64,000 nucleotides of DNA from a virus (Duplodnaviria > Heunggongvirae > Uroviricota > Caudoviricetes). The DNA is taken from IMG/VR virus record IMGVR_UViG_3300045988_163275, positions 43,752 to 107,751 of that record, one strand, 5' to 3'. The notes under the pieces are model-generated. The model searched no databases and was not told the origin of the DNA. It worked only from the letters and a program-made list of their open reading frames with translations. Shown in pieces: positions 1,776-43,760 of the stretch (position 1 is the stretch's first letter; each line of letters starts with the position of its first letter). The position numbers were made by a program, and so were the translations under genes.

Positions 1776-2369
1776 TCAGTCACAGCAGAAGGAAGATCCG
1801 GAGTCGCAGGTCGAGCTGGAATCGTGTCCATCAGCATCCCATCCAGAGAGACAGGAGGTCGTTCGGGCAGGGGGGTCATCTGCAAGGCCGTGGTGGCAGT
1901 GGAAGTAGTTGTGCCCGGCATCAAAAGGCTCTGACCGGCTGGTACGGTAACCGCTGCCAGAGTTGCCAAAATCACTCCGTAGGCCATTGGCTTCAGTCGA
2001 TTTCGTTGAAAATTTTCCATGAGAACTGTCCTTGTGTGTCCGGGTTTCACGCAAAACACGAGAAGCAACGCTATTACGCACCTTCTCCATGCCTACTGTC
2101 GTGCCCAGATTAGCTATGGCGGTAGCTTGCGCATTAATGCGCTTCTCCAGTTCAAACACTCGTTCTTCCAGTTCCGCAAGGCGTGCGGAAACACGACCAC
2201 TAAACAGCTCGGTCAGCACCAGGCGAATTGAACGGGGACGTTTATTGAAAGAAGTGAAAGACGTTTGACGGGCCATGTGGATTCCATTCAGTGTCAGAAA
2301 GAGTTGCGGCTGGCCAAGCCGCCTTTTGGCGTTCCATCCTGGAACCGTACCTAACCGGTACTTCGTCAT
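1776..2369 (-). CDS. hypothetical protein with coiled-coil segment; C-terminal half low complexity, possible frameshift
   Basis: ORF with ARLAELEERVFELEKRINAQATAIANL heptad-like region; a second frame (1763..2068) overlaps. Confidence 0.3.
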   Translation of the reverse strand: MTKYRLGTVPGWNAKRRLGQPQLFLTLNGIHMARQTSFTSFNKRPRSIRLVLTELFSGRVSARLAELEERVFELEKRINAQATAIANLGTTVGMEKVRNSVASRVLRETRTHKDSSHGKFSTKSTEANGLRSDFGNSGSGYRTSRSEPFDAGHNYFHCHHGLADDPPARTTSCLSGWDADGHDSSSTCDSGSSFCCD

Positions 2370-2426
2370 CCTGACGATTTATAAGATACCTGATTTATTA
2401 TAGTAGGTAAATACTTACTTATCTTT

Positions 2427-3023
2427 TTATGACAAAAACCCAATGTCATGCTTGTGAGGCATATCAGCTGCGGAATAGGCGGCGATCTTCGCCAGACGGT
2501 CACACATTTCGTTCTCGCGATGACCTGCATGGCCTTTAACCCACTTCCAGCGGACATTATGACGACTGGCGGCCGCGTCGAGACGTTTCCAGAGATCCAC
2601 GTTTTTGACTGGCTTCTTCTCAGACGTGATCCATCCGTTACGCTTCCAGCCTTTCATCCAGAGCGTCATGCCGTTTTTAAGATACTGGCTGTCGGAATGC
2701 AGGATCACGTTGCAGGGGTACTTCAGACGCTCCAGCGCAATCAGGGCGCCCATCATCTCCATCCGATTGTTGGTCGTGCTGTGGAAGCCCTCAGAAAGCT
2801 CGCGCTCTTCGCCTCGATACTGGAGAACGATGCCGTAACCGCCCGGCCCGCCCGGATTTTTGAGGCAGGAGCCATCACTGAATACTTTTACGGTTTTGAG
2901 CTGGGGATTGAACTCGACTACGGGTGTGTTGAAATTGGTACGGGAATGCTGGTGGGTTTGGCATCTGGCTTTAGACTTCGTGCGGCAGCCAGTGCGTTGC
3001 CGGACTGGGTTCTTGGTCGTCAT
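2427..3023 (-). CDS. rnhA: ribonuclease H (RNase HI type), with N-terminal extension
   Basis: FSDGSC...NPGGPGGYG...[16 protein letters not shown]...HSDSQY...[18 protein letters not shown] matches RNase HI catalytic motifs. Confidence 0.85.
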
Positions 3024-4049: not shown

Positions 4050-4643
4050 TTACGCTGCCTTTTTACGTGGTCTCTTCTTCCTGACAACATTGGCAGGGTC
4101 ATAACCACCCAGCTTTTTCATCACCGCCAGCGGTATCTTGCTGATGGTGTGCCCAGCTTCCTGACAGTAGCCACGGAAGATAAGCAACATGCTGCCACCA
4201 GGGTTGATGTTCACCTCCACCAGCCCAAGTTCAACATCCGGCTCAACGAACGCCACGCGGCCGCCAGACAAGATGACGGTTTCGTTGGCGCATTCAGCCG
4301 CACGCTCGTACCACTGCGTATCGAGGGATTGTGGTATCAGCATGACCGTCGTCACTCCACGCGCCTGCTCGCGAATGGCTGCGTCTATCCAGGGGGTGAT
4401 TTTGGAGTAGGGCGGGTTAAGGAACGCCACAGTGCCAGGTTCTCCCCAACTGCACTTGAGCGCATCACGCTCAACACCGATAAAGTTCGGCAGGAGAGCA
4501 TTATCTTTGTTGCAGGCGACGTCCACATCGAACTTTACGCCTATGTAACGTTGGATGGCGACAAACAACCACTGCGGTGTGCGCCAAAGGTCGCGAAGAG
4601 AGGCATCACGCTCTCGCTTTTTGATTTTTTCGGCTGCGATCAT
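4050..4643 (-). CDS. phage-type DNA N6-adenine methyltransferase (Dam-like)
   Basis: FLNPPYS catalytic motif and overall phage Dam-like pattern; palindromic motif 12 nt upstream of ATG. Confidence 0.75.
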   Translation of the reverse strand: MIAAEKIKKRERDASLRDLWRTPQWLFVAIQRYIGVKFDVDVACNKDNALLPNFIGVERDALKCSWGEPGTVAFLNPPYSKITPWIDAAIREQARGVTTVMLIPQSLDTQWYERAAECANETVILSGGRVAFVEPDVELGLVEVNINPGGSMLLIFRGYCQEAGHTISKIPLAVMKKLGGYDPANVVRKKRPRKKAA

Positions 4644-4654
4644 TACTTTACTCT

Positions 4655-4676
4655 GATAGGTAAATACTTACCTATT
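4655..4676. promoter_or_regulatory. class-1 palindromic motif ATAGGTAAATACTTACCTAT upstream of Dam-like gene
   Basis: 8-bp inverted arms ATAGGTAA/TTACCTAT, 12 nt upstream of start codon. Confidence 0.45.
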
Positions 4677-4797
4677 TTTTCATTTAATCCAACGGATAGC
4701 AAACAAAGAAGAACGCGCCAGATTCGCAAACGGGAAGCTCTCTGGCGCGTTTTATCGATGCTGGGTAAGCCAATTCATACCCAGCATCCTAAAGCTC

Positions 4798-5670
4798 TCA
4801 GGGTGCTTTAGATCGTGCAGAGGAACATTGTTCAATGGAATACTCCGCTATGAATTTTTTGACGATCGGCGACTCTTTATTAAGCGTTAGATTTCCACCT
4901 TCTCTGGTGGCAATGCCTGTGGCCGGAAACACAGCCATCATCTGGCCAGCCTGAGTCGAAGCCGTGTTAAGTGGATATGGTTTCTCCGGGTAGCTCATTA
5001 GCGCCAGTTTGATGCTATTGCTGGTCGCCGTGTTCGTATCAAGAATATGGCGCATTGCGATTACCGTGTAGACGCTGATTTCCGGGCCACCACTAAACCA
5101 GTTCAGGAGGTTTAAGATTTTGTCTTTCGCTTTGACCGGCGCGCCTTCAAATGCGGCAGTAAAGCGCTCACTATCCAGACCGGCTGTCACATAGAACGAT
5201 TCATCCTTACCCTCCAGCGTGAAGCGAGGTTTGGTCGGCGCACGCTTTGATTGTGCCTTCTGGTGTTTTGGCTGCTCTTCTTCAGGTTTAGGCCCAGACT
5301 CCACTGAAGGTAAAAGCGTTGGAGCTATATCGGTGGTCTCAGCGCTTCGAGCATCAAGTTCAGGTGTTGGCTCGTCCACTATCTCCGCAATAGGGCCACG
5401 CTCTGGCTCCTCGACCTTCACCGATTCGTGTGCAATCTCAAGCTCTTCCAGAACGCCACTCAGATCGCCGGTAGAGCTGACATTCATGACTTCATCTGCC
5501 ACCGCCTCGACTGGTTTTGCGATTGCATCATCCAGACCAGAAAGAAGATCGTCGATCTCGTCGACACCGCTCATTTTCGCAGCTTTCTGAACCGGTTCTT
5601 CGAGAGATTGCAGCATTGCAGTCAATTCATCCAGGTCATCGTTTTTAACAATGTTTGAAACTGCGCTCAT
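4798..5670 (-). CDS. hypothetical acidic protein
   Basis: ORF; start placed at ATG 5668-5670 preceded by AAGGAG; acidic N-terminal half. Confidence 0.45.
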   Translation of the reverse strand: MSAVSNIVKNDDLDELTAMLQSLEEPVQKAAKMSGVDEIDDLLSGLDDAIAKPVEAVADEVMNVSSTGDLSGVLEELEIAHESVKVEEPERGPIAEIVDEPTPELDARSAETTDIAPTLLPSVESGPKPEEEQPKHQKAQSKRAPTKPRFTLEGKDESFYVTAGLDSERFTAAFEGAPVKAKDKILNLLNWFSGGPEISVYTVIAMRHILDTNTATSNSIKLALMSYPEKPYPLNTASTQAGQMMAVFPATGIATREGGNLTLNKESPIVKKFIAEYSIEQCSSARSKAP

Positions 5671-5798
5671 TTTTAACTCCTTATGTTTTCGTTGGTGCAT
5701 TTCCGCGTTTTGGTTGAGCTTATTCTGGCAAAACCTATCAGGCAGAAAAGTCATAACTACAGGCAGTTAAAGGAACTGGAGGCAAAGAAAAAGCGCCA

Positions 5799-6353
5799 TC
5801 AGGCGCTTTCGAATGGGAGTTTGAAGAAGCCGTATTTCTCTCGGGCTTTGAAGAAACACTGCATCATCAGATCAGTATCGTAGAGAGCACTGTGGGCTTT
5901 CTCACGGTCGTAAGTGAACCCAAGTGAGAATGCCAGCTCTTCCAGGCGTGGGCGCTTCCCATCCTCGGTAGCCCACAGGGAAAATAGAGTGTCAACCAGA
6001 GGGATTTCTGGCAATTTCACTCCATAGCTTCCGAACTCGTGGCGAATGAACGGAAGGTCAAAAGCCTCCCCGTTATGGGCGACTAACGCGCTACATGCCC
6101 CCATATATGCAGCAATCTTACCTGCGTGATCAGCCAACAGCGGTTCAGCAGCCAGTTCTTCCAGAGAGATACCATGTACAGCCTGCGCCTTCGGATCGAT
6201 GCTACGACGCGGGTTGAAGCGCATCTCAAGGCTGTCAATGCGCTTCTGGGTTTCCAGTTCATAACGAGATATCGCGATTTCGATAATTTTGTGGCCGGAT
6301 GTGAAGTCCAGCCCCGTGGACTCAATATCGACGCCACCGACAATCGTGGTCAT
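5799..6353 (-). CDS. DnaQ-like 3'-5' exonuclease (DEDDh)
   Basis: Exo motifs VDIESTGL, HNGEAFDLPF, HSALYDTD. Confidence 0.75.
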   Translation of the reverse strand: MTTIVGGVDIESTGLDFTSGHKIIEIAISRYELETQKRIDSLEMRFNPRRSIDPKAQAVHGISLEELAAEPLLADHAGKIAAYMGACSALVAHNGEAFDLPFIRHEFGSYGVKLPEIPLVDTLFSLWATEDGKRPRLEELAFSLGFTYDREKAHSALYDTDLMMQCFFKAREKYGFFKLPFESA

Positions 6354-6362
6354 TGGTACTCC

Positions 6363-6782
6363 TTACAGCTTCTTCGCGCCTTTCAGCAGTGCGCCACGCA
6401 CAAACTGAGCAGCCTTTTTTAGTGCGTCCTCGCCGCTTTCGCAGACGACCGGCTCACGCCATTCGCCCGTTGACGTGTTGAGGAGCTGAATTTGGTTAGT
6501 CTCCAGGCAAACGGACACATACAAAACCGTACCGCCCGAGAGTTTGAGATGCATAGGAAACAGAGAGCGCTTGGTGCCGCCATTGAATTGCGACATCGCC
6601 GCATTAATGGCTTCACCAACCTCTTCCCCAACAAGACCTTGAACGGACTCAAACACTGCTCGGATAGCCAGACGTGCTTCACGTTCACTCATTAAGGAAC
6701 GGGATTGTTCGTCAGCAATACGGATCAGTGCTTCAATCGCTTTGCGATCTAATTCATCCGACAGGGGAAGTTCATCTATCAT
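6363..6782 (-). CDS. hypothetical protein
   Basis: ORF; start placed at MIDELPL ATG with GAGGA RBS. Confidence 0.4.
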   Translation of the reverse strand: MIDELPLSDELDRKAIEALIRIADEQSRSLMSEREARLAIRAVFESVQGLVGEEVGEAINAAMSQFNGGTKRSLFPMHLKLSGGTVLYVSVCLETNQIQLLNTSTGEWREPVVCESGEDALKKAAQFVRGALLKGAKKL

Positions 6783-9493: not shown

Positions 9494-9660
9494 ACAAGAT
9501 AAGTAAGTACATACCTATTATTTTATACAAGTTTATCTGTCAGAAGTGTGTAAGGCTAGGAGGGGAGTAAAAAAAATGGTGGCTCTTCGGCCACCATTGC
9601 AATGAGCAATTAAGAACTTGGACAATAAAACACGCCAAGGCAATATATAATGATAAGTAC

Positions 9661-10539
9661 TCACTTACAATTATTTTTTACCATCTCGTAAAGAGATGAG
9701 GACTTCGCCTTCTCAACAAAGCAAGTCAGATCCACATCGCTGTAGGTTGGGGATTTGAGGATCTTGCCATCAGAAACTCTGAAGCCGATCATCATGTCAG
9801 TCCCTTCAGCATGGCGGAACCCCAGATCTTCCTTATCGTATTTGCAATTCTCTACCGCCACACGACGCTCTTCGGCGTCAGCCGGCCACAGCTTGGTCAT
9901 GTTGGAACGGTGGATTTCTGCCACCAGCTCAACAATATCGATTCCGAGAAAATCAGCCAGACGGTAGGTCATCATGCAGGCAACGTAGATTTTGTTCATC
10001 ACGCGGCGCAGCTCCTGCACCAATTCGGAATCGCTTATCGGCTTCGCTTCAAGTTTGTCAGCCAGCGCATTCAGCATTAATGCAGCTTCTTTTGCTTCTT
10101 CAAACGGGATAGCCATATCGTCAAAGACCGTGTTGCCCGGAACCATGATGGTGTGGATGAAGCGATCAACACTCTGCTCTTGGGTGTAGTAACTCATGCC
10201 CGTCGAGATGCCGCCTTTGATGGCCACCATTGTGCCGACGCCCACGTAAAGGAAGTCAGCCATCGCGTCCAGCAGTGCCGTCATATCCCCATTTTTGGCT
10301 GCCGGGATGCCCTCGGTAACTGCTTCTTCGTGGATCAGCTTGGCACGCAGACGCAGTAATGCCGGATCTGGAATGGCACGGCGTGGGTGCTGAAACAGTG
10401 TGTGGAACTGGTCAACCATCAGGTAGATGCTTTCCGTTGTCTTGCCGAAACCGGGATTCAACTCGTAAGGCTCTGGTTTAAACCCCACGAGTTTGTCTGC
10501 GGCAAGTTTCAGATGATCGGTCAGTTTCGTAAATTTCAT
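9661..10539 (-). CDS. hypothetical protein (possible all-alpha MazG-like NTP pyrophosphatase)
   Basis: HEEAVTE...ALLDAMADFLYVG loosely resembles MazG EExxE/D motifs; weak. Confidence 0.35.
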   Translation of the reverse strand: MKFTKLTDHLKLAADKLVGFKPEPYELNPGFGKTTESIYLMVDQFHTLFQHPRRAIPDPALLRLRAKLIHEEAVTEGIPAAKNGDMTALLDAMADFLYVGVGTMVAIKGGISTGMSYYTQEQSVDRFIHTIMVPGNTVFDDMAIPFEEAKEAALMLNALADKLEAKPISDSELVQELRRVMNKIYVACMMTYRLADFLGIDIVELVAEIHRSNMTKLWPADAEERRVAVENCKYDKEDLGFRHAEGTDMMIGFRVSDGKILKSPTYSDVDLTCFVEKAKSSSLYEMVKNNCK

Positions 10540-17874: not shown

Positions 17875-18930
17875 ATGAGCGTAAACGACAATAAAAACAT
17901 TGCGATAAGCGAAGCATTTTCCGAAACAGACAAAAAGACCGGCGAAGTTGTTACGTTAGTTCCTAACACCAACAACACAGTTCAGCCTGTTGCTCTGATG
18001 CGTCTTGGTCTCTTCGTTCCGACGCTGAAATCGACATCCAGGGGTAGAAAGGGGCAAATGGTCTCTATGGACGCCTCCGCTGAACTCAAACAGCTGTCTC
18101 TGGCCAAAGCCGAAGGGTACGAGGATATAAGGATTGCTGGTCTTCGTCTTGATATGGATAACGATTTCAAAACATGGGTGGGCATCATCCACGCGTTCGC
18201 CAAGCACAAGGTTGTTGGTGACACCGTCACGTTGCCGTTCGTCGAGTTCGTCAGACTTTGTGGCATACCAACAGCCAGATCGTCCGCGAAGTTACGTAAG
18301 CGCCTGGACAGCTCTCTAAGTCGTATCGCCACAAACACCATCTCATTCCGCAGCAAAGGCTCTGAAGAGTATTACGTTACGCACCTTGTGCAGACGGCAA
18401 AGTACAGTACCAAGAATGACACGGTCGAACTGAAGGCCGATCCTAAGATTTTCGAACTTTACCAGTTCGACAAAAAGGTGCTTTTGCAACTTCGGGCCAT
18501 CAACGAACTCTCCAGAAAGGAATCCGCGCAGGCGCTCTACACCTTCATTGAAAGTTTGCCACCAGACCCGGCGCCAATCTCATTGGCTCGCTTACGCGCC
18601 AGACTTAACTTAACCAGCCGCACCATTACCCAGAATGCGACAGTCAGGAAGGCGATGGAGCAACTGCGAGAGATCGGCTATCTCGATTACACTGAAGTGA
18701 AACGCGGCAGCTCGGTCTACTTCGTCATCCACTATAGACGGCCGAAGTTACGTTCGGCACTGCCGCCATCTATGGCCACGCCTGAAGATCCAGAAGATAT
18801 CTTGCCAGGTGATGATCCGGAGGACATTATCGATGTTGCTCCTGAAGAAAAAGACGGGGAAATGGTCATGTTGAGCAAGGAAGAACTGGCGATTCTCGAA
18901 GAGCTGCGCAAGGCAAAGGCTCGCAAATAG
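17875..18930 (+). CDS. repA: replication initiator RepA (P1/RepFIB-like)
   Basis: Blocks [60 protein letters not shown] match my recollection of P1 RepA; flanked on both sides by iterons. Confidence 0.8.
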
Positions 18931-20538: not shown

Positions 20539-21023
20539 GTGTTTTCTCCTTGTTGGTAAGTACTTATCTATCTTAATGGGCGCTATAAGGCGCACAATCA
20601 TTGTGTTCAGGCTGGTGGAAAGAACTTCTCCAGCGTGTGGTTGATAGCCTTATCAATGTGCATCAGGTGGCCAAATTCAGTGTGCCACTTCACTCGAACC
20701 CCAAGACCGGCAATGGAATCGCTTTGTAGAGCTAGAGTTAGTGCCGCATCCTCGTATTGAGCACAGCGAAGCGATTGAGCTAGACTATGGCATGACGGGG
20801 GGCGCTCTAAAGGTTGAGATTAGAGCGGCCTCGGCAGGCTACTTACTCAGACAATGGAATGTGGATTGTTCTACCAACGCCACACTCCAAGATGGTGGAG
20901 CTCAATTGTACTTAAAGAACAGAGCAACACTTTATGGAGTTAAAAACATCATGCTAGCTCCAGGGATTGAAAAAGAACTTGGTAACTAATGCACAAAAAC
21001 GAACTTGGCGCAGAGAATAAATT

Positions 21024-24000
21024 TTGATGAAAATAATCGATAACCTTAACAACCTATTAGGTGACGAGCTTCAACAGACGCTGACACCGAATACAAAGTT
21101 AAAGATTGCTGCGTCTTGCTTTTCTATTTATGCGTATGAGGCTCTCAAAAAGGAGTTAGCGAAGATAGACTCACTTGAGTTCATCTTCACATCACCTACT
21201 TTTGTCGCAGATGAAGTTACCGATAAATTCAAAAAAGAAAAACGAGAGTTCTTTATTCCCAAAGCAGGGCGTGAACGCAGCCTTTACGGAACTGACTTTG
21301 AAATACAGTTAAAGAACAAGCTCACTCAAAAGGCGATCGCCAAAGAGTGTGCAAACTGGATCAGAAAGAAAGCGACATTCAAATCAAACAAAACTGATTC
21401 TCCAATGCAGTCGTTTGTTGTGACGGAAGCACCTAGACAGCAAACAGAGACAATGAGTGCAGTTTTTGCTCCGGTTAGCGGGTTTACGGCGGTTGATCTA
21501 GGGTATCAGCGAGGAAATGCTATTTCGAATTTTGTGCAAAAAATCGATGAGCCAAATTTCACAGCCCAGTACTTACAGTTATTCGACCAAATTTGGAAAG
21601 ACCCTGCGAAGCTTCAAGATGTTACTAAAACAATTTGCGAGCATATAGAGTCTGTCTACCAGGAAAACTCGCCTGAGAAAGTCTATTTCATTATTTTGTA
21701 TAACATTTTTAATGAGTTCCTTGATGATATTACAGAGGATGTATTACCAAATGATCGAACCGGCTATCAGGACACCTTGATTTGGAACAAGTTATTCAAC
21801 TACCAAAAAGATGCCGCGACTGGGATTATCAATAAGTTAGAGACCTATAACGGCTGCATTCTGGCTGATAGTGTTGGTCTTGGTAAAACATTTACAGCGT
21901 TAGCTGTCATCAAGTATTACGAGCTCAGGAACAAGTCCGTACTTCTACTGTGTCCGAAAAAATTGGCAGATAACTGGCTCAACTTTAATCGAAACTTAAA
22001 GACAAATATTTTTGCTAAAGACCGTTTTAGTTACGATGTTTTGTGTCACACAGATTTGAGTCGAACCTCTGGCGAATCCTTCGGTACTCCGTTGAATAGA
22101 ATAAACTGGGGTAACTATGACTTGGTCGTCATTGATGAGTCGCATAACTTTAGAAATAACGATGCAGTGAAAGATCGAGAAACTCGATATCAGAAACTGA
22201 TGAATAAAGTGATTCGCGCTGGCGTAAAAACCAAGGTGCTGATGCTATCAGCGACACCAGTGAATAACAGATTTACTGACCTGAGAAACCAGCTCGCGTT
22301 AGCTTATGAAGGCGAGTCGAGCAATCTCACAAAGCATCTTAAAACCACAAAAAGCGTAGAACAGATCTTCAACCAAGCACAAGCCGCATTTAACGCTTGG
22401 TCCAAACTCGACCCAGAGACGCGAACAGCTAAAGCCATACTCGATGCCTTAGATTTTGACTTTTTTGAACTGCTTGATAGCGTCACTATCGCTCGCTCAC
22501 GAAAGCACATCACAACTTTCTACGACACAACAGATATTGGCCATTTCCCTGAACGTAACAAGCCAATCTCGTTTCATTGTCCGCTTACTACTCGTTCGGA
22601 TGTAGTAAGCCTGAATGAGATCTTTGAACAGCTTAAGCTACTCAAACTATCTGTTTATGCGCCAGTGAGTTATATCCTCCCGAGTAGATTGAAGAAATAT
22701 GAGGAGATGTATGACACGGAAGTTGAAGGCGGAAAAGGTAAGTTAAAGCAAAGCGACCGTGAAAAAAGTTTGGTTGCATTGATGACAACGAACCTCCTAA
22801 AGCGTCTTGAGAGCTCCGTATACTCGTTCAGAAGCACCTTGCAATCTCTCCATGATAACCATGTTCGTGTTCTAGGTATTATCGACGAATTCTATAAGCG
22901 AGACGGGCAAACCGAAGTGAGCAGTCTCGTTGAAGCGCTAGAGTCTATTGAAGCAGATGAAGACGATATGCCTTCTTATCACGATATGGAAATCGGTAAC
23001 AAAATCAAAATTAAGCTAATGGATATGGATCTTCCATCCTGGCAGCAGGATTTAGATGGCGATTTGGAGCTGATCAAAGGGTTACTAGATTCTGTTAGCA
23101 AAATTAAGCCAGAAGAAGATGCTAAGTTGCAGCATCTGAAATCACATATTGCTGCAAAAATAAATAATCCGATAAATCCTGGAAACCGGAAAATCATCGT
23201 GTTCACGGCGTTTGCTGACACCGCTCAGTATCTGTACGAGCAGTTGTCACCTGTGATGTTAAGCGAGCATAGAATCCATACTGCGATGATCACTGGTGGT
23301 GCCAGTTTACCTAAGACCACCTTAAAAACCGGACGAAAAGGTTACGACACACAAGAAGTGCTCACCTTGTTTTCTCCAGTTTCCAAATCGAAAGCCAGTG
23401 TATTACCTGACGAACCCGCTGAAATCGATTTGTTGATTGCTACAGACTGTATCTCTGAAGGGCAGAACTTACAGGATTGCGATTACTTAATTAACTTTGA
23501 TATTCATTGGAATCCAGTTCGGATTGTTCAGCGCTTTGGGCGTGTTGACCGTATTGGCTCGGCGAATAAATGTATTCAGTTAGTTAACTACTGGCCTGAT
23601 ATATCGCTGGATGAGTACATCAACTTAAAAGAACGTGTTGAAAGTCGAATGACGATTGTTGACGTAACAGCGACCGGTGATGACAACGTTCTAAGTTGTC
23701 AAGCGAATGATGTGTCGTACCGTAAAGAGCAGTTAAAGAAACTACAAGAAGAAGTCATCGAGCTTGAAGATTTAAAAACGGGGGTTTCTATCACCGATCT
23801 AGGTCTAAACGAATTTCGAATGGACCTGCTAAATCTAATGAAACTCTACGGCGAACCAAGAAATGCACCAAGCGGCATGCATGCGGTGGTTGAGGCTAAG
23901 CCAGAATTAGGGTTATTGCCTGGCGTGGTGTTTGCGCTGAAAAACGTTAATAACAGTATCGATAGAGATCTGCAAAACAGGCTCCACCCTTATTACCTTG

Positions 24001-24359
24001 TCTATGTATCGAATGAAGGGGACATCGTCGCTAATCATTTTGAGGTAAAGAGACTATTAGATTTAATCCGAAGTAGCTGTAAAGGTCAAACAGCACCGCT
24101 CAGTGAGATTTGTGCTTTATTTAATCGCTTAACGCAAGACGGTCGAGATATGCAGTGTTACTCTCACCTTCTAACAGATGCCATAAAAAGCATGGTTGAA
24201 GTTAAGGAAGAAAAAGATATTGATAGTTTGTTCAATGGTGGCGCTACCTCAGCTTTAGTGAATACATTTGCCGGGCTTGATGACTTTGAATTGCTGGCAT
24301 TTATTGTGATCCAGCAAAAGCAGCTGATGGAAAACAGTGCCCAGGATGAGGTTAGCTAA
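21024..24359 (+). CDS. SNF2-family helicase (1111 aa) with about 280-aa N-terminal domain of unknown function
   Basis: Motif I ADSVGLGKTF, motif II VVIDESHNFRN, motif III LMLSATPVNN, motif V/VI region DCDYLINFDIHWNPVRIVQRFGRVDRIGS. Confidence 0.85.
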   Translation: MMKIIDNLNNLLGDELQQTLTPNTKLKIAASCFSIYAYEALKKELAKIDSLEFIFTSPTFVADEVTDKFKKEKREFFIPKAGRERSLYGTDFEIQLKNKLTQKAIAKECANWIRKKATFKSNKTDSPMQSFVVTEAPRQQTETMSAVFAPVSGFTAVDLGYQRGNAISNFVQKIDEPNFTAQYLQLFDQIWKDPAKLQDVTKTICEHIESVYQENSPEKVYFIILYNIFNEFLDDITEDVLPNDRTGYQDTLIWNKLFNYQKDAATGIINKLETYNGCILADSVGLGKTFTALAVIKYYELRNKSVLLLCPKKLADNWLNFNRNLKTNIFAKDRFSYDVLCHTDLSRTSGESFGTPLNRINWGNYDLVVIDESHNFRNNDAVKDRETRYQKLMNKVIRAGVKTKVLMLSATPVNNRFTDLRNQLALAYEGESSNLTKHLKTTKSVEQIFNQAQAAFNAWSKLDPETRTAKAILDALDFDFFELLDSVTIARSRKHITTFYDTTDIGHFPERNKPISFHCPLTTRSDVVSLNEIFEQLKLLKLSVYAPVSYILPSRLKKYEEMYDTEVEGGKGKLKQSDREKSLVALMTTNLLKRLESSVYSFRSTLQSLHDNHVRVLGIIDEFYKRDGQTEVSSLVEALESIEADEDDMPSYHDMEIGNKIKIKLMDMDLPSWQQDLDGDLELIKGLLDSVSKIKPEEDAKLQHLKSHIAAKINNPINPGNRKIIVFTAFADTAQYLYEQLSPVMLSEHRIHTAMITGGASLPKTTLKTGRKGYDTQEVLTLFSPVSKSKASVLPDEPAEIDLLIATDCISEGQNLQDCDYLINFDIHWNPVRIVQRFGRVDRIGSANKCIQLVNYWPDISLDEYINLKERVESRMTIVDVTATGDDNVLSCQANDVSYRKEQLKKLQEEVIELEDLKTGVSITDLGLNEFRMDLLNLMKLYGEPRNAPSGMHAVVEAKPELGLLPGVVFALKNVNNSIDRDLQNRLHPYYLVYVSNEGDIVANHFEVKRLLDLIRSSCKGQTAPLSEICALFNRLTQDGRDMQCYSHLLTDAIKSMVEVKEEKDIDSLFNGGATSALVNTFAGLDDFELLAFIVIQQKQLMENSAQDEVS

Positions 24360-24362
24360 TCT

Positions 24363-25049
24363 ATGTACTCACCTTGGATATTTCCTGACAAAGCAAAGTT
24401 CGGTCGAGTCGTGCCGAAGAACAAAATATACGAACACAGCGCGGCAAGCGCTGGATTGAAGTCACTTTTTGTAGAGCAAGTAGAGCAAATCCTTTGGGCT
24501 TACAAGCTATCGCCTAGCACGCTGAATATTCCTCAAACCAGTGAGGTCAGTGAAATACAGGTTTTCAGTGTGAAGCTTAAAGGTGACTCGATAGACGACA
24601 GCGTACTAAAAGCCATTGATTTGGCGATACCTTTTCCCATTCTATTTGAGGTATGGGAAGCTCGCGGTGAGCAAGGCCACTACGTTGCTTGCTATAAGCG
24701 TAAGGCAGAAAATGATCAGTCAAAATGGTTTTGTAGCCGCTATTTACGCTCAGAAACCTTCTATTCAAGTGATTCATTAGCAGTGACTTCAGAAGTTTTG
24801 GGGTTGCCTACCGCCATCGATATGGCGGAGCTGTATCAAAAGCTTCTTACTCGCTTGTTACCCATACCCCAACGAGCCGCTGAGAGTATTGAAGAGGTCA
24901 TTGAACGCTTGATGGCAATTCAGGCATTGGAAAAGCAAATCTCGCAATATAAGAAGAAGGTTCATGCCGAGAAACAGTTTAACCGCAAGGTTGAGCTCAA
25001 TAAGCAGTTAAAGAATTTAAGGTGCGAGCTTCAAGAGTTACTCGCATAA
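24363..25049 (+). CDS. hypothetical protein, translationally coupled to the SNF2 helicase gene
   Basis: 228-aa ORF starting 4 bp after helicase stop; C-terminal coiled-coil-like region; no motif I can name. Confidence 0.55.
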   Translation: MYSPWIFPDKAKFGRVVPKNKIYEHSAASAGLKSLFVEQVEQILWAYKLSPSTLNIPQTSEVSEIQVFSVKLKGDSIDDSVLKAIDLAIPFPILFEVWEARGEQGHYVACYKRKAENDQSKWFCSRYLRSETFYSSDSLAVTSEVLGLPTAIDMAELYQKLLTRLLPIPQRAAESIEEVIERLMAIQALEKQISQYKKKVHAEKQFNRKVELNKQLKNLRCELQELLA

Positions 25050-25122
25050 AGAATAAACAATTTCAATCAGTTAAATAGTGCCACATGCTTTTTATGCAAG
25101 GCATCACGCAAAAGGTGAACAC

Positions 25123-27045
25123 ATGGACAAATTAAAGATGCACAGCCCCGACATGACGCAGCAAAACATAGAGAAAATTCAGGCGTTGTTTCCGAACTGC
25201 GTGACGGAATCAAGAGGAGCTAACGGAGAGCTAAAGTTAGTCATTGATTTTGACCAACTTAAACAAGAGCTATCAAATTCAATCGTTGAAGGCCCGCAAG
25301 AGCGCTATCAGCTGAACTGGCCCGGTAAGCGAGAAGCACTACTAACAGCGAACGCACCTATTGCAAAAACATTAAGACCTTGTCGAGAAGAAAGTGTTAA
25401 TTTTGATACCACAGAAAACCTCTTTATTGAAGGTGATAACCTTGATGCGCTAAAAATGTTGCAAGAAACCTATTTGGGCAAGGTTAAGGTGATTTATATA
25501 GATCCGCCCTATAATACGGGTAAGGATTTTATATACGAAGACGATTTTGCTGAAAATTCTGATGGGTTTTTGAAGCGGTCAAATCAAAAGGATGAAGAAG
25601 GCAATCGCCTTGTAGCCAATACCGATTCCAACGGTCGCTTTCACTCAGACTGGTTGAGCATGATATTTTCGAGACTTAAACTTGCACGCAATATACTAAG
25701 TAGTGATGGAATTATCTTTATTAGTATAGATGAAAACGAGCTTGATAACCTCTTGAAAATAGGAAAGGAAATATTTGGTGAAGAGAACCACATAACTACG
25801 TTTTGTTGGGAAAAAAAGAAGAAACCATCTTTTCTTAATAAAAATGTAGGTTCGAAATTCGAGTATATTGTCACCTTTTCAAAGAATCGTGATTACACAG
25901 GTGCATTTTCCATTGATCTTACAACTGAAGGTAAAAAGTACCCCCTGAATAATGCAGGGAACTCACTCGGAAACCTTGTTTTTCCAGCAGGTTCGGTACG
26001 ATTCAACTTGCCAGACCAGATTATAGAACCGCAAGATATGTCTGAGGGTAAAATAAAAACCAGGTTAATTAATAGGTTGGAAATAATTGGAGGTAAAAAC
26101 GTTAATGAATTTATCCTTGAGGGTGAATGGAGATATTCTCAGAATAGATTAAATGAAATTCTAGAAAATCGAGAAGAAATTATAATCAGCAAAGTTCCGT
26201 TTAGGCCAAATCATGTAAAAGCAGGAGGTGAGATAAAAAAAATGCACAACCTCCTAAGTGTCGCTCATTATAAAGTTTCAACTAATGAGGATGCGGATGC
26301 CGAAAGTTCAGAGTTGATGGGGAATAAATACTTTGATTACACCAAGCCTTCAAATTTAATCAAACTATTAATCCAAGCAATAACTTATGACGATCAAGAA
26401 TGTCTAGTATTAGATTTTTTTGCGGGTTCATCAACAACCGCCCATGCCGTGATGCAACTTAATGCAGAAGATGGCGGAAATCGAAAATTTATCATGGTTC
26501 AGTTGCCTGAAGAGTGTGATAAAAAATCAGAAGCCTTCAAAGCTGGCTACAAAACAATTGCTGAGATATCAAAAGAACGCATCCGCCGTGCTGGTGCAAA
26601 AATATTAGAAGGGGAGTGCCACAAAGACTGGAATAAAGACGTTGGTTTCCGAGTGCTTAAAGTTGATACATCCAATATGGCCGATGTCTACTACTCGCCA
26701 GAGCAGGTTTCTCAGGGTTCGTTAGACTTATTGGTAGATAATATTAAATCAGACCGCACTGATGAAGATTTACTTTTCCAGGTTCTACTTGATTGGGGCG
26801 TCGATTTAACCTTGCCAATTAGAAAAGAAACGATTCAAGGTAAATCGGTATTCTTTGTCGATGATGATGCACTGGTGGCCTGTTTTGATCTGCGCATAAA
26901 TGAAGCTTTGATTAAAGAGTTAGCCATAAAAGAACCTCTTCGCGTAGTGTTCCGTGATGACGGCTTTGAATCTGATGCAGTAAAAATCAATGCTGAGCAG
27001 ATTTTCAAGCAAGTGTCGCCATATACTGAAGTTAAAGCGATTTAA
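25123..27045 (+). CDS. N6-adenine DNA methyltransferase, beta-class (Type III Mod-like)
   Basis: Catalytic motif [12 protein letters not shown] near N-terminus and AdoMet motif [14 protein letters not shown] near C-terminus (IV before I order); start at ATG 25123 with AAAGGTGA RBS. Confidence 0.85.
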
Positions 27046-27140
27046 GGGGGGAGCATGACAAATTTTACCGGATTAAAATTTGCACACAGCCTTGTCGCAG
27101 ACAAGGTGTGCCCAAAGGGTTGCGTACAGGGAGGTGCGCA

Positions 27141-30100
27141 ATGAAACTTAAATTCAAAGTCCAGCCTTATCAAACTGTTGCCGTAGAGTCGGTTGTTGAC
27201 TGCTTTGCGGGGCAACCTAATACCTCCGGTATAACCTACCGAATCGATCCTGGCATTGCCAAAGATAAATTTGGCAATGCTGGCTGGGATATGAGTGACC
27301 AGGATGGGTTTAAAAATGCTGAACTTGCGATCACTGAATCGCAGTTATTGCAAAATATCCATGGTGTTCAAAGTAGACAGAACCTCCCTGTTTCAGAAGC
27401 GTTAGCCAGCAATGCTAGCTCTAAGATTAATCTCGATGTTGAAATGGAAACCGGTACAGGTAAGACATATTGCTACATCAAAACTATCTTTGAGATGAAT
27501 AAACGCTATGGCTGGAGCAAATTTATTATCGTAGTGCCTAGCATTGCCATTCGTGAAGGTGTTTACAAGTCGCTACAAATCACAGGTGAGCATTTTGCCC
27601 AGAATTACAACGGTAAAAAGGCACGGTTTTTCATCTATAACTCAAAACAATTGCACCAGTTAGAGAGTTTTTCTTCTGACAGTGGCATCAATGTCATGAT
27701 CATTAATATTCAAGCCTTTAATGCATCAGGAAAAGACAATCGACGTATTTATGAAGAGTTGGATGACTTCCAGTCTAGGCGTCCTATTGATGTTATTAGT
27801 GCAAACCGTCCAATCCTGATTTTGGATGAGCCGCAGAAGATGGAAGGTAAGAAGACATTAGATGCCTTAGCCAAATTCAAACCACTGATGGTACTTCGAT
27901 ATTCGGCCACGCATAAGACAACACATAATAAGGTGCATCGTCTGGATGCTCTTGACGCTTATAACAATAAGCTGGTTAAGAAAATTGCAGTTCGTGGTAT
28001 CTCAGTAAAGGGTTTAGCGGGCACTACAGCCTATCTATATCTGGAATCCATCGAAATCTCAAAAAAAATGCCAGTGGCTCGTATAGAGATCGAGGTTAAA
28101 CAACAAAATGGCATCAAACGCATACCCAAGAAGGTCACTAAGGGCGATAATCTTTTTGATCTTAGTAATGGTTTGGACCAGTACCGTGATTTTGTGGTTA
28201 CTGATGTCAACGCGATTAACGACACAGTTGAATTCAAAAATGGCCATGTTTTAACCGCGGGCGATGCCACGGGAGACGTGACCGAAGAGACCATTCGCCG
28301 CATACAGATTCGCGAGACAATTAAAGCACACCTTGAAAAAGAAAAAATACTTTTTAACCAGGGTATAAAGGTTCTCTCTCTCTTTTTTATTGACGAAGTC
28401 GCAAAGTATAGGGACTACTCTCAAGCCGATGAAAAAGGTGATTATGCTCGCGTTTTTGAAGAAGAGTATTCCTTGCTTGTACAGGAGTATCTTGATGAGT
28501 TGTCCCTTTTGCCAAGTGAGCAGACTGATGCCTATAAAGCCTATCTATCGGCCATTGAAGGCTCTAGAACGCATAATGGTTACTTCTCAATTGATAAGAA
28601 ATCAAATCGTCTTCAGAACCCCGGCTTTAAAGTCCGTGGTGAAGATGCCGGGCTATCAGACGATGTAGATGCCTATGATTTGATTTTAAAAGATAAGGAA
28701 AAGTTACTTTCGTTTGAAGAGCCTACTCGATTTATCTTTTCACACTCGGCCTTGCGCGAGGGGTGGGATAATCCAAACGTATTTGTCATGTGTATGTTGA
28801 AACACAGCGACAATACTATCTCTCGTCGTCAAGAAGTTGGACGTGGTTTACGTCTGGCCGTCAATAAACATGGTGACAGACAAGATCATCCGGCAACTGT
28901 GCATGAAATTAATGTCTTGTCGGTGATTGCAAGTGAAAGCTATAAAGACTTTGTCACGAATCTGCAAAAAGAGATCAGCGAGTCTCTCTCAGCGAGACCT
29001 AGAAAAGCAGATGAAGCTTATTTTACGGGTAAGACAATTACAACAGCTGATGGACCTGTAGAAGTAACACCTGTCATGGCTAAGCAAATTTATAAGTATT
29101 TGCTTAAAAATGATTATACCAATGACGTTGACGATTCAATTGCGCCATCATTCCACCAGGCTAAGGCTAGTGGGCAGTTAGCGCCAATGCCTGCTGAGTT
29201 AGAGCCTTACCGCGAGCAAATATTGACCCTGATTGACGGTGTTTATAGTGAAGCGCAATTGCCAGGTGTTGGTGATGATCGTAAACCTAAAAACAATCCG
29301 TTGAATGCTAATTTTGATAAGAAAGAGTTTCAGGAGCTTTGGCACAAAATCAATCGCAAAGCGGTTTATAAGGTTGATTTTGATTCGTCTGAGTTGATTA
29401 AAAATTGTATTCGGGTACTCAATAAAGAGCTTAAGGTAACGCCTCTTCAGTACACGATTCAAGATGGTGTTCAATTGGATGGCATTACCGACGAACAACT
29501 CAAAGCTGGACAAAGTTTCAAGGTGAAAAACACTGAGACTGAAACTCATCAATCGAGCATTCATTCTGCTGTTCGTTATGACTTGGTTGGTAAGTTGGCT
29601 GAAAATTGTGTGCTGACTCGCAAAACAGTCGCCGAAATACTGATGGGTATAGAACCTGTAGTATTTGCACAATTTAAGCAGAACCCTGAGCATTTTCTCG
29701 CTGAGGCTTCACGCCTTGTGAAAGAGCAAAAGGCATCTGTGATCATCGAGAAGCTATCATATGATCCAACGAACGAATCTTATGATGTTGATATATTCAC
29801 GGCAGAGCAAAAAATCACTGATATGACAAAAGCCGTTAGTGGCGTTAATAAGCATATTTATGATTATGTTGTCGTTGATTCACAAGGCATTGAACGGGAC
29901 TTTGTTACCGAGCTTGATACAAGCAAAGAAGTCGTGGTTTATGCAAAACTGCCTCGTGGTTTTCTGATACCGACGCCTGTTGGCGACTACAACCCTGATT
30001 GGGCGATTTCTTTCAAAGAAGGAAGTGTTAAACACATTTACTTTATTGCAGAGACTAAAGGAACGATGTCTTCGCTTGAATTGCGTGGCATAGAAGATCG

Positions 30101-30218
30101 CAAGATTGAATGTGCTAGGAAATTCTTTGAAAAAATTAATGCAGAGATAACGAGTGAAAACGTCAAATATGATGTTGTAACGAGTTACTCGAAATTAATG
30201 GAAGTCATAAGCGGTTAG
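27141..30218 (+). CDS. Type III restriction Res-like helicase-nuclease
   Basis: Helicase motif [10 protein letters not shown], motif [11 protein letters not shown], motif [12 protein letters not shown]; C-terminal PD-ExK-like GDYNPDW...IAETKG; start at ATG 27141 with GGGAGGTG RBS. Confidence 0.85.
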
Positions 30219-30239
30219 TTGTTTTCGTTTTTATATCGG

Positions 30240-30274
30240 GCTGTCAGTTCATCTGGCTGACAGCTCACTTTTAG
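30240..30274 (+). terminator. hairpin terminator-like element after the Res-like gene
   Basis: GCTGTCAG ttcatctgg CTGACAGC followed by tcactttt. Confidence 0.4.
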
Positions 30275-30519
30275 TTACATAAAAATAATTGAAAAATTGA
30301 GTCAGCAGATTGAGTCTAAATGTCGCTCACTCATGCGGTTATATTTTAAGTATGGTTGTTGACATGACGGAGAAATAGCATGAATCCTGAAAAGTGAATC
30401 GCCACTGCCATCAGATAGAGTTTGATCATGTGTTTTCCTATGTGGCTATTGTGTGTAGATGATAAGTAAGTGATTATATATTTTCAAGGTATAAAGACGT
30501 CCATTCGGACGCCTGAAAA

Positions 30520-32859
30520 TTAATCTTCTAATTCATCTGTCGGTGATGTCTTCTCGCGCCTGTCATCTATTGCCTGTAACGCAGCAATGATTTCAGCTAA
30601 TGGCTTCTCCCGGTACATCTCGACGATCTGTGATTTGGTGTATTTCTTCTCGCCAATTTCCACACGCCCGCTGGCGCTCTTGGGCAGGTATCCTTCCTCC
30701 AGCATGTATTCAACCAGAGACTCGACGACGTCCAGCCCGCGAGTCGGGTCGAAGTAGAATTTCCATGAGCATTTGCCAAACGGAGGCGCGACTTTGTTTT
30801 TAATGCACTCGGCGCCAACGTCCTGTCCGATCTTCTCTTTGCCATCCTTCATGACGGATGCACCCAGACGGATGCGCACCGACGCGTAGAACTTCGGAGA
30901 GTCGCCACCCGGAGACGTAGTCGGATCGCCAAACATCACACCAATTTTGGTACGCACCTGGTTCAAGAAGATGATGCACGCGTTGTACTTACGCGCCCAA
31001 AGCGCCAGAGTAGGGAAGTTCGCACTTGTCGCGCGCGCCAGCGCCGTGTTGTCGTTCATGTTCAGCTGATCTTTGTCCTTCGCAGTGCCTTCTGCCATCT
31101 TGTCGAACTTCTCAGCCTTCGAGTTCGGAACCATCGACGCCAGAGAGTCGGCTACGATGCAGATAGGGGCTGTTTCCGGAATAAGCTCTTCGTCGCGCAC
31201 CAGCTTGAGGATTGTGCCGATCAGCTCTACGGAGTCTTCGAAGGTATCCGGCTGTTTGTAGACCCACTGACCGTCGTCTTCGTCGGCGTTCAGTCCGTTC
31301 GCTACCGCCAGACCAACGTCGAAACTGTTTTCGTGGTCAAGGAATACGGCCAGACCATCCTGTTTTTGTGCTGACACCATCGCAGCTGTCGCGAGGAATG
31401 TGTTGTGGCTGATAATCCCGTTAGACCAGAAAGAGTGTGTTTCCGGCATCGCTACGTCGAACGTTGGTGCTTCACCTTCCTCAATAGCCACGACTTCGTC
31501 GTAGAACAAGTTAGAGTCAATTACCGCTGCCAGTTGTGCAAACAGATGCTCGTTAAAACGATTCTTTCTGCTAATGAAGGAGACATAGATTTCTCGCAGT
31601 TTGTCTATTCCGACACGATCGCCGCGGCCAATAACGTGATCTACCAGAACGTAGTCTTTACGAGAGGTCTTGGTGAGTGACTCGTAGAGTGATTTCACTA
31701 AGCCGCTGATGTGCGGAACGTAGCCTAAATAAGTGCGGTCAAAACTAATGTCCCGTTTGGTTGCCACTGCTAAACGAGCCGGAGACTCGAACCCAATCGT
31801 TGACAGGAAAAGGTCGTAGTTAGAGCCACTGAATGACAGCCGGTAATATATGTTTTTATAACCTGCGACGTGTTTTTCAGAGATAGTTGACGTAATCCCC
31901 AGATTCAGGAGCATGAGGCGAATTTGCTGTAGCAGCAGCCCACTCGCGCTCACAACCTCAATGCAGCGACCATCATTGATGTGGCATTCCAGCTCAAAGT
32001 AGCCGCGAAGGAATGCAATTTGAGCCTCGCTATTGGCGCGACGCACACTCAACGGAACCTGCTTGCCAGCAGCTTTCTCATACTCCAGACCATATTCTTT
32101 AAAAAGCAGCGAACGCACCTCTTTGCTAAACAGCACATGGTCTTCCGAGCCGTTATGTTTTCTCGTAACTGGCATCTTGTCTGATACCAGCGAAATGAGG
32201 CGGTAGTACTCATCCTTGATGAATGGATCTGTGTTAGAAAAATGCACAGAATTTTCAGAGGCCACGTATCCGTCAGCAATTAAATAGCCCATCAGTTTTG
32301 CGATATTGGCATCCAAGTGCTGATCGCCGAATTGATGTGTGCCAACCATTGAAGGAATCGTGTCGCCTACACTGATTTTTTCAGCATACCGCCAGACGAT
32401 ATTGCCTAAGTCGTCAACCACACGAATTGGGTGACGGAACGTAGCCTCGATGTAACCCCCTGATGCCAGCTTAATGCGCTTGAATTTGCGACGGTTGTTC
32501 CATGTCAGGTGTGAGGTCTTCTCTATCACGCCATTTTCATTGATGAGTCCAACGTTATGCTCTACATCGCGAGTAGTGCATGTTGCTTTGTGCCCCTCAA
32601 TCTCAAACAGTTCTTTCACTGTTACCATTCCACGCTCCGTCAGCAGCATGGTGTCTGCGGTAACACATTTCCCCGCGCTTGGTGGCCCGAAGACTTCAAC
32701 GATACGCCCACACGGAAAACCACCGTCGTAACGTCCGGAAATGGCTTTGTTCAGTGGAGGGAAACCGGAGTCAATCCAGTGGGAGACCTTCTGAATCTCG
32801 TCATTGCTGCCGATTTTCTTTTTCAGCGCCAGTGCCAGTGCGGATTTGCCTTTTGCCAT
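30520..32859 (-). CDS. RecA/UvsX-like recombinase interrupted by an intein
   Basis: N-extein ends GRIVEVFGPPSAGK; C-extein resumes TFLATAAM... and contains IIFLNQVR; 422-aa insert begins with Cys and ends HN. Confidence 0.8.
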   Translation of the reverse strand: MAKGKSALALALKKKIGSNDEIQKVSHWIDSGFPPLNKAISGRYDGGFPCGRIVEVFGPPSAGKCVTADTMLLTERGMVTVKELFEIEGHKATCTTRDVEHNVGLINENGVIEKTSHLTWNNRRKFKRIKLASGGYIEATFRHPIRVVDDLGNIVWRYAEKISVGDTIPSMVGTHQFGDQHLDANIAKLMGYLIADGYVASENSVHFSNTDPFIKDEYYRLISLVSDKMPVTRKHNGSEDHVLFSKEVRSLLFKEYGLEYEKAAGKQVPLSVRRANSEAQIAFLRGYFELECHINDGRCIEVVSASGLLLQQIRLMLLNLGITSTISEKHVAGYKNIYYRLSFSGSNYDLFLSTIGFESPARLAVATKRDISFDRTYLGYVPHISGLVKSLYESLTKTSRKDYVLVDHVIGRGDRVGIDKLREIYVSFISRKNRFNEHLFAQLAAVIDSNLFYDEVVAIEEGEAPTFDVAMPETHSFWSNGIISHNTFLATAAMVSAQKQDGLAVFLDHENSFDVGLAVANGLNADEDDGQWVYKQPDTFEDSVELIGTILKLVRDEELIPETAPICIVADSLASMVPNSKAEKFDKMAEGTAKDKDQLNMNDNTALARATSANFPTLALWARKYNACIIFLNQVRTKIGVMFGDPTTSPGGDSPKFYASVRIRLGASVMKDGKEKIGQDVGAECIKNKVAPPFGKCSWKFYFDPTRGLDVVESLVEYMLEEGYLPKSASGRVEIGEKKYTKSQIVEMYREKPLAEIIAALQAIDDRREKTSPTDELED
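31402..32667 (-). mobile_element. intein with LAGLIDADG homing endonuclease domain inside the Walker A motif
   Basis: Insert CVTADTML...GIISHN followed by Thr +1; two LAGLIDADG-like blocks LMGYLIADGYV and IAFLRGYFELECH; excision gives GPPSAGKT. Confidence 0.7.
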
Positions 32860-43673: not shown

Positions 43674-43760
43674 TTTGTTTTCTGATGTGCGTAATTTATC
43701 ACTGTACGAACAGGCATCTAATCTGTTCGTACAGGCGCTAGAGAGGATGGGAGGGGGGTG

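Follow-up and report, generated by a model that had tools for sequence, protein, structure and literature searches.

The DNA analysed here, referred to as the window, is a stretch of 64,000 nucleotides (nt) from a tailed virus of the Caudoviricetes (positions 43,752 to 107,751 of IMG/VR record IMGVR_UViG_3300045988_163275). A cargo block, nt 20671–30400 of the window, is inserted in an SSU5-type phage-plasmid backbone and encodes on its plus strand an SNF2-family ATPase, a DUF4391 protein, and the Mod and Res proteins of a Type III restriction-modification (R-M) enzyme. The four genes probably constitute an integrated, four-component, Type III-like defence system, a judgement that takes in either direction of the effect of SNF2-DUF4391. 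By sequence comparison, SNF2 and DUF4391 form an obligately linked, co-diverging pair, and the Mod-Res pair is complete and motif-intact. The joint action of the four proteins, the direction in which SNF2-DUF4391 would act and each biochemical step described below are what we infer. An earlier note on this DNA, made from its letters alone, had proposed a composite restriction or defence module and not chance neighbours; the profile matches, the conserved gene order and the lack of a match to a named system support that proposal.

The four genes and their products

The four co-directional open reading frames (ORFs) listed in the earlier note are all present at the positions given there and intact, and the profile searches it suggested as a check confirmed all four assignments. 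The ORF list of the block holds no long ORFs beyond these. Alternative starts exist for SNF2 (nt 21024 or 21027), Mod (nt 25078 or 25123) and Res (nt 27108 or 27141).

The third gene (nt 25123–27045, plus strand) encodes a Type III Mod, a beta-class N6-adenine methyltransferase of 640 residues from the ATG, which matches N6_N4_Mtase (2.5e-32) and the PADLOC model MTase_III (7.8e-226). The motif order read earlier as beta-class holds, with D127PPY (residues 127–130) preceding DFFAGSSTT (residues 431–439). Mod has three relatives by sequence among solved structures; these include the adenine-specific Mod methyltransferase 6k0w_B (1e-58) and EcoP15I Mod 4zcf_A (5e-57). The variable target-recognition region of Mod (nt 25810–26320, plus strand) is visible as a drop in nucleotide identity. 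Cassettes that are otherwise 94–100% identical share 36–50% identity there, with a gradient of divergence running back into DUF4391, and residues 230–400 of Mod are unconserved in 54 homologues. Divergence centred on the recognition region is the usual signature of specificity swapping.

The fourth gene (nt 27141–30218, plus strand) encodes a Type III Res of 1025 residues from the ATG, an SF2 helicase-like ATPase with a C-terminal PD-(D/E)xK endonuclease. It matches ResIII and RE_endonuc (1.4e-33) and the PADLOC model REase_III (E = 0). The Res-like character was recognised correctly in the earlier reading: GTGK108T, D229EPQ and PD953...E971-T-K973 are present, and they are conserved in 54 homologues. 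The sole relative of Res among PDB sequences is EcoP15I Res (4zcf_C, 8e-75). With the NCBIfam equivalog for Type III endonucleases, whose cutoff is 564 bits, Res reaches only 400. P1-type Res is only about 31% identical to it, over part of the length, which places the Res of the window in a separate clade. Older annotations of this clade read just 'DEAD/DEAH box helicase'. Apart from Res, no nuclease is recognisable in the core, the SNF2 terminal domains and DUF4391 being without a catalytic-looking invariant set. Two close relatives of the cassette have lost Res and kept SNF2, DUF4391 and Mod: a 5-nt deficit causes a frameshift in NZ_CP100974.1 (ET300), and ISApl1 is inserted in NZ_CP116971.1 (CUVM3). 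The window differs from ET300 and has an intact Res.

The first gene (nt 21027–24359, plus strand) encodes the SNF2-family ATPase of 1110 residues, in which SNF2-rel_dom, Helicase_C and ResIII all score above their Pfam cutoffs (PF00176, 1.5e-12, 47.7 bits against 24.9; PF00271, 1e-12, 48.7 bits against 23.5). The protein comprises a conserved N-terminal domain (residues 1 to about 250), a split SNF2 core (about 256–860) and a conserved C-terminal region (about 870–1100). The SNF2 motifs reported earlier, GLGK287T, D370ESH, SATP and QRFGRVDRIG, all stand in the translation, and the Walker A and DESH motifs are invariant across 69 homologues. SNF2h and RapA are the best matches among PDB sequences. 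A PADLOC model labelled 'C3a139 HKD+Snf2', which carries no other name, matches the protein over its full length (3.9e-122).

An N-terminal domain without assignment had been noted before; it exists, and its size is about 250 residues and not 280. Neither terminal region (about 250 residues at each end) has a match in Pfam or among PDB sequences, the N-terminal domain having been tried against Pfam at E = 10. In a profile search against PDB sequences this domain gave chance Cullin matches only, and a homologue search returned close fragments and no distant annotated relatives. Its AlphaFold2 (AF2) model has a mean predicted local distance difference test (pLDDT) score of 44.9 and is too poor for a judgement of fold. 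The HKD nuclease of the phospholipase D (PLD) family implied by the PADLOC label found no support. No PLDc profile matched the window protein or five distant homologues at E = 1, and hhalign against PLD proteins embedded in related operons gave a probability of 0.6%. The sole HKD-like string, with the consensus PLHGFTAVD, does not contain the lysine, and its H is replaced by S in the window protein.

The second gene (nt 24363–25049, plus strand) encodes the DUF4391 protein of 228 residues. It matches Pfam PF14335 over residues 7–223 (7e-55, 186.8 bits against a cutoff of 29.9) and has no match in PADLOC, NCBIfam or PDB sequences. The AF2 model (pLDDT 79.7) shows an alpha/beta domain at about residues 8–135 and a long C-terminal helix of about 50 residues (176–227), which carries a conserved EKQFNRK motif. 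In the proposed system, the protein is probably held via this helix. The deep family has no invariant set of acidic, histidine or lysine residues. Since catalytic-looking invariant residues are lacking, the protein is read as a putative non-enzymatic adaptor. The present result would give DUF4391 a biological context.

Conservation of the unit and its possible action

The gene-neighbourhood survey suggested earlier was made on one genome per species (about 100,000 genomes) with a DUF4391 alignment as query. Relatives were found in at least 332 genomes, and 80 loci were fetched. By tblastn, every one of these loci with enough contig has the order SNF2-DUF4391-Mod-Res on one strand. The loci belong to Alpha-, Beta- and Gammaproteobacteria, Desulfovibrionales (Nitratidesulfovibrio), Verrucomicrobiota, Planctomycetota, Myxococcota, Bdellovibrionales, Chlorobiaceae and a metagenome-assembled genome of Clostridiaceae. 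Plasmids of Lactococcus, Listeria, Enterococcus, Brochothrix, L. plantarum (Lactiplantibacillus), Desulforapulum and Paraburkholderia also have the four-gene order; identity of the distant plasmid copies is only 22–26% (DUF4391), 41–51% (SNF2) and 33–45% (Res). The order asked about in that check is conserved in genome loci and on distant plasmids alike.

SNF2 and DUF4391 are tightly spaced. The SNF2 stop and the DUF4391 start are 3 nt apart in the window, and the two genes overlap or lie at most 30 nt apart in 68 of 72 homologous loci. Pairwise distances over 54 complete loci reveal co-divergence of SNF2 with DUF4391 (r = 0.90), SNF2 with Res (r = 0.90) and DUF4391 with Res (r = 0.84). Shuffling of its recognition domain leaves Mod with a correlation of only about 0.5 to the other three. 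Mean identity over the loci is highest for SNF2 (75%), followed by Res (71%), DUF4391 (54%) and Mod (53%). The rate of divergence of DUF4391 is thereby close to that of Mod. SNF2-DUF4391 without Mod-Res was never found in about 95 loci across phyla. Mod-Res of this clade does occur without SNF2-DUF4391, in Clostridium taeniosporum pCt3 and Aeromonas pHX3, and plasmid records with a full-length Res (143) exceed those with a full-length SNF2 (110). Judged from this gene content, the dependence is asymmetric: SNF2-DUF4391 would need Mod-Res, and not the reverse.

The regulators directly upstream of SNF2 in homologous loci are of the BrxR/WYL (14 loci), HTH_17-like (13) and ribbon-helix-helix (RHH)-like (9) types. 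On the Lactococcus, Listeria and Enterococcus plasmids, a gene annotated as a small helix-turn-helix (HTH) regulator lies slightly upstream of the helicase gene. This diversity of regulators in front of SNF2 indicates that SNF2 is the first gene of a regulated unit. The operon is normally controlled by an upstream BrxR/WYL, small HTH or RHH regulator, of which only a brxR 3′ end survives in the window.

About 40% of loci have unrelated co-directional genes embedded in the interval from DUF4391 to Mod or in that from Mod to Res. They encode an OLD-family ATPase-nuclease with DUF2130, SIR2 with HerA, AAA_13, UvrD-like helicases, AAA with an S8 peptidase, YhcG/DUF1016, a PLD protein, Schlafen AlbA_2 with HATPase_c_4, AAA_21 with DUF4276, RhuM, and Bro-N. 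Gene embedding was also reported inside hmaABC operons (PMC11232893); the known or candidate defence genes embedded here resemble that case and support a defence role. The contexts of the unit are mobile and of the defence type, namely cargo of the SXT/R391 hotspot-5 type with BrxR and Mrr, embedded defence genes, and hsdM at the equivalent site of a related plasmid.

Loci with embedded genes include L016, L018, L020, L032, L036, L047, L054, L056, L061 and L070. The embedded pair in L061 (486 and 578 residues), for which Pfam gives no match, may be a so far unknown pair of defence proteins. In L089 (nt 847–3009), the 720-residue protein P0158 begins with DUF4391 and continues for about 490 residues without a Pfam match. 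It is followed by a 582-residue gene without assignment, SIR2, HerA, Mod, a Schlafen-like gene and Res. P0158 is probably a read-through fusion with an embedded gene, as proteins of corresponding length in L061 and L089 indicate; the fusion says nothing on the role of DUF4391. A gene of about 120 residues lies between SNF2 and DUF4391 in three loci (L036, nt 9601–10001; L085, nt 6214–6623; L068, nt 9580–10001). From a reading of the translations, two of the three resemble four-helix-bundle proteins of the 23S rRNA intervening-sequence type, and the third a GxxExxY/PD-(D/E)xK-like protein.

Textbooks describe Type III enzymes as having two subunits, and the way in which they slide when triggered by ATP, and then collide, serves as a model of how distant points on DNA communicate. 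The site is asymmetric, and Mod methylates it on one strand. Mod holds Res, which enters a sliding state with the help of ATP; the DNA is cut after a collision at unmethylated sites in inverse orientation. In the system proposed here, Mod would recognise a short site and methylate adenine on the DNA of the element and the host. Res bound to Mod would use ATP to leave an unmethylated site, and the foreign DNA would be cut by its C-terminal PD-(D/E)xK nuclease. The SNF2 protein may be an ATP-driven translocase or remodeller of double-stranded DNA, and DUF4391 a small non-enzymatic adaptor tightly coupled to it. Mainly because Res is the only recognisable nuclease, SNF2-DUF4391 probably depends on and acts through Mod-Res. 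Most likely the pair would serve as an accessory motor that raises or widens restriction. It might clear or remodel protein-DNA complexes, recycle stalled Mod-Res that is still bound, or act as a second motor or a roadblock on linear incoming DNA.

It is possible, on the doubtful side, that through SNF2-DUF4391 the Type III enzyme becomes a distinct machine of four subunits that communicates along DNA in a new manner. For example, a translocating motor tethered by the DUF4391 coiled coil could remove the need for two head-to-head sites or for closed DNA. If so, ATP-dependent restriction systems would include these enzymes as a class of their own, with a wide distribution that reaches from Proteobacteria to Firmicutes. 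A large clade with an extra SNF2 motor and an adaptor-like protein, extending over at least 332 of about 100,000 species genomes and more than 100 plasmids, implies an unrecognised layer of Type III mechanism or control.

Several observations weigh against an integrated system. Mod-Res can stand alone, so that SNF2-DUF4391 is not required for the R-M pair to exist. Tight linkage by itself also predicts co-divergence and a fixed order, and the interruption of about 40% of loci shows that the two halves are separable in DNA. Neither the SNF2 N-terminal domain nor DUF4391 could be given a fold, and their structures thus support no interaction or activity. A promoter scan of the block found no convincing promoter; with the regulator gene truncated as well, expression in the window is not assured.

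Two other relations between the halves of the operon were weighed. It is unlikely that two independent systems travel together, an ordinary Type III R-M enzyme and a separate SNF2-DUF4391 defence that blocks phage in a non-nucleolytic or unrecognised manner. Mod-Res of the clade does exist alone, unrelated defence genes inserted exactly between DUF4391 and Mod are tolerated, and stand-alone SNF2 defence proteins such as HmaA are known (PMC11232893). However, the complete absence of SNF2-DUF4391 without Mod-Res from about 95 loci speaks for dependence, as do the fixed order and the divergence correlated with that of Res (r = 0.84–0.90). Neither SNF2 nor DUF4391 has a recognisable effector domain, and the regulators stand in front of SNF2 and not in front of Mod.

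A safety or establishment module, in which SNF2-DUF4391 strips or restrains Mod-Res on the DNA of the host or of the element itself, is fairly unlikely. With such a module, a toxic Type III enzyme could be carried by elements whose successive new hosts are unmethylated. Where the context of a locus is recognisable, it is indeed in many cases a plasmid, an integrative and conjugative element (ICE) or a phage-plasmid, and the operon begins with SNF2-DUF4391. SNF2 enzymes such as RapA, which is among the PDB matches, remove DNA-bound proteins, and the inactivation of Res in the two close relatives ET300 (frameshift) and CUVM3 (ISApl1) suggests that Res has a cost. On the other side, dedicated transcriptional regulators are already present upstream in many loci, and Type III enzymes are intrinsically safe on hemimethylated DNA. 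An ATPase of 1110 residues, the most conserved protein of the operon, would also be a heavy solution for control.

A role outside defence is very improbable. The block might serve DNA metabolism or epigenetic control of the phage-plasmid, as an orphan-like methylase with repair helicases; it lies among repA, an intein-containing recA and dnaE, and Type III mod genes can be phase-variable regulators. However, the block has no phase-variation repeat tracts, the nuclease motifs of Res are intact, and the cassette recurs in defence hotspots of unrelated elements. The block is also absent from SSU5 and carried by only 15 of 242 plasmids that share at least some flanking DNA. The integrated four-component system is preferred.

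Relation to known systems

Type III R-M systems such as EcoP15I, EcoP1I of phage P1 and StyLTI share with the window operon a beta-class Mod with a central variable region, a Res composed of an SF2 ATPase and a C-terminal PD-(D/E)xK nuclease, and the order of mod before res. In the window, mod is directly upstream of res on the same strand. EcoP15I is the only solved-structure relative by sequence for Res and one of the three for Mod. The composition of Mod and Res only does not apply, as SNF2 and DUF4391 lie upstream in nearly all loci of the clade. Mod and Res of the window have every sequence-level character of Type III, and the operon departs from that type in having more than two genes.

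The pairing of an SNF2-family ATPase with an N6-adenine methylase is also found in class 1 DISARM (DrmA, DrmB, DrmC, DrmD, DrmMI), and the C-lobe of the window SNF2 aligns to DrmD models; the effector here is a Type III Res. DISARM itself was rejected. Models for DrmB (DUF1998) and DrmC (PLD) have no match, DrmA gives a weak, partial, generic helicase match (1e-20), and the DrmD equivalog NF038317 reaches 152.5 bits against a cutoff of 610, over residues 575–859 only. The term 'DISARM-like' used in the earlier note is apt as an analogy for the pairing of helicase and methylase, and does not stand as an identity, with DrmA, DrmB and DrmC missing and DrmD far below its cutoff.

BREX type 3 and the DUF499 Hma system were also rejected, the block having no BrxC/DUF499 AAA+ ATPase and no PglZ; the HmaA and BrxHII models match generic helicase lobes only. 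The DUF499-centred, BREX-related 'Type-2 BR' arrangement (PMC12839542) likewise has an SNF2 helicase with an extra N-terminal domain, a small alpha+beta protein and an N6-adenine methylase. Its small protein is DUF3780, a family different from DUF4391. Compared with 'Type-2 BR' and Hma, the window operon is without a DUF499 ATPase and without a detectable HKD nuclease in the N-terminal domain, and has a separate Res nuclease. The 'Type-2 BR' arrangement is the nearest parallel in design, built of different families. Of the other candidates, Zorya gave a weak and partial ZorD match, Dpd was rejected as an identity, and lactococcal AbiR consists of different proteins. The lactococcal LlaFI is reportedly a two-gene system.

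No named system matches the unit as a whole. PADLOC calls only Mod and Res, as Type III; it has no DUF4391 model, and its helicase model is unnamed. NCBIfam 20.0 (June 2026) and PADLOC 2.0 hold no curated name for the SNF2 or the DUF4391 protein, and NCBIfam has no equivalog for them. Defence-finding tools presumably log such loci as plain 'RM type III', since PADLOC has Type III models for Mod and Res and none for DUF4391. The four-gene unit was not found described in the literature searched, with most subscription journals and REBASE outside that search, and the two papers, among about 8 million, that mention 'DUF4391' are unrelated. One Cronobacter paper groups a Type III endonuclease, a Mod methylase, helicase IV and an SNF2 helicase in its listing of island cargo and makes no remark on them. 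Surveys of phage-plasmids and lactococcal elements count such loci simply as Type III R-M.

The cargo block and its setting

The left edge of the block lies at about nt 20670, where identity to the backbone of plasmid p1585m1_B ends. On the right, cassette-free plasmids (H19–H25) align again only from about nt 30401. The phage-plasmid setting proposed earlier is borne out, the 24-kb stretch to the right of the block being 93% identical to phage SSU5. The block is rare: some or all of the flanking DNA is present in 242 plasmids of Escherichia, Yersinia, Enterobacter and Salmonella, and only 15 of these carry the block. It was found in no phage record. The four genes had looked more AT-rich by eye, and the GC content across 21–30 kb is indeed 0.38–0.43, against about 0.50 on either flank. 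GC skew is +0.03 to +0.14 over nt 21000–30000 and near zero or negative in the flanks; the positive skew fits coding on the plus strand and a foreign origin. The block has no Rfam family and no simple-sequence repeats.

The surroundings hold replication and recombination genes, namely repA, recA and dnaE. The block had been said to lie on the strand opposite to these. This is true of the immediate neighbours, which are on the minus strand, and not of repA (nt 17875–18930), which is itself on the plus strand. The right neighbour (nt 30520–32859, minus strand) is a RecA-family gene split by an intein with a LAGLIDADG homing endonuclease, with Pfam matches to RecA, Intein_splicing and LAGLIDADG_3. 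Older annotations of it read just 'LAGLIDADG family homing endonuclease'.

The gap to the left of the SNF2 gene, described before as roughly 420 bp, measures 422 bp and is not empty. The 3′ remnant of a brxR-type WYL regulator gene fills nt 20687–20989 (plus strand), a pseudogene without the N-terminal DNA-binding part. PGAP labels the equivalent stretch of NZ_CP100974.1, a near-identical E. coli plasmid, 'WYL domain-containing protein, missing N-terminus', and brxR is truncated in each E. coli copy inspected (pLAO18, ET300 and pHH194M). An SXT/R391-type element of Vibrio parahaemolyticus has the same operon behind a WYL/BrxR gene, with whose 3′ end the remnant shares more than 90% identity; the identity of the remnant to the WYL gene of ICE R997 is 88%. 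Over the whole interval between the 3′ end of brxR and the Res stop codon, identity of the window to the V. parahaemolyticus element exceeds 90%, and it breaks off within a few bases beyond that codon. That element has an intact BrxR gene before the operon and Mrr after it, as cargo of the hotspot-5 type. The SXT/R391 hotspot-5 cargo headed by WYL/BrxR thus shares the brxR-to-Res block with the window. The regulator is intact there; the cargo of the window lies in a phage-plasmid and its regulator is truncated.

SXT/R391 hotspot-5 defence cargo with WYL/BrxR is treated in the accessible portions of LeGault et al. (bioRxiv 10.1101/2020.12.16.423150) and Picton et al. (PMC9122601), and those portions do not describe the SNF2 and DUF4391 genes. 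The latter paper reports BrxR in association with clusters of Type III plus Type IV restriction genes. A survey of 76 SXT ICEs predicted that hotspot 5 carried anti-phage systems in all but three, those three being without a discernible hotspot 5, and found a WYL-domain regulator gene common to every hotspot-5 region. It was also proposed by Luyten et al. that the brxR coding sequence has a cis-regulatory role. This proposal, which is not a result of the present analysis, offers a lead as to why the fragment may have been retained.

Among 5426 complete E. coli genomes the block is present in 10–11, mostly on plasmids and once in a chromosome between insertion sequence (IS) fragments. IS elements moved the whole block into a 140-kb plasmid (E. 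coli pHH194M-140K) and into a chromosomal island (E. coli GPEC996). In pHH194M a piece of the phage-plasmid backbone (recA) travelled with the block. The brxR remnant is present in pHH194M and is not annotated in GPEC996. The block documents a complete defence operon moving among SXT/R391-type elements, phage-plasmids, other plasmids and the E. coli chromosome. At the equivalent site of plasmid p1585m1_B (L008, nt 4142–6484), a truncated Type I hsdM, of which only the first half of the model is matched, lies beside an IS integrase gene. The hsdM fragment and the IS indicate that the site takes variable cargo, and it appears to be a recurrent landing place for restriction genes.

The spacer between Mod and Res is unusual in the window. 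Mod ends at nt 27045 and Res starts at nt 27141, leaving 95 bp where most homologues have 9–14 nt. A lineage-specific insertion of about 85 bp (nt 27055–27144, plus strand) folds into hairpins, with an RNA fold z-score of −2.8. It creates a 29-codon upstream ORF whose TGA overlaps the ATG of Res (ATGA). The sole other copy is in the E. coli ET300 plasmid NZ_CP100974.1; none was found in the other cassettes examined or in PLSDB, and Res starts 9–13 nt past Mod in pLAO18 and the Vibrio element, which are without the insertion. The hairpin seen earlier to the right of Res is present at nt 30238–30266 (plus strand). It has a 12-pair stem with six GC pairs and a 5-nt loop, followed by ACTTTTAGTT, and this terminator-like structure with its T-run closes the operon.

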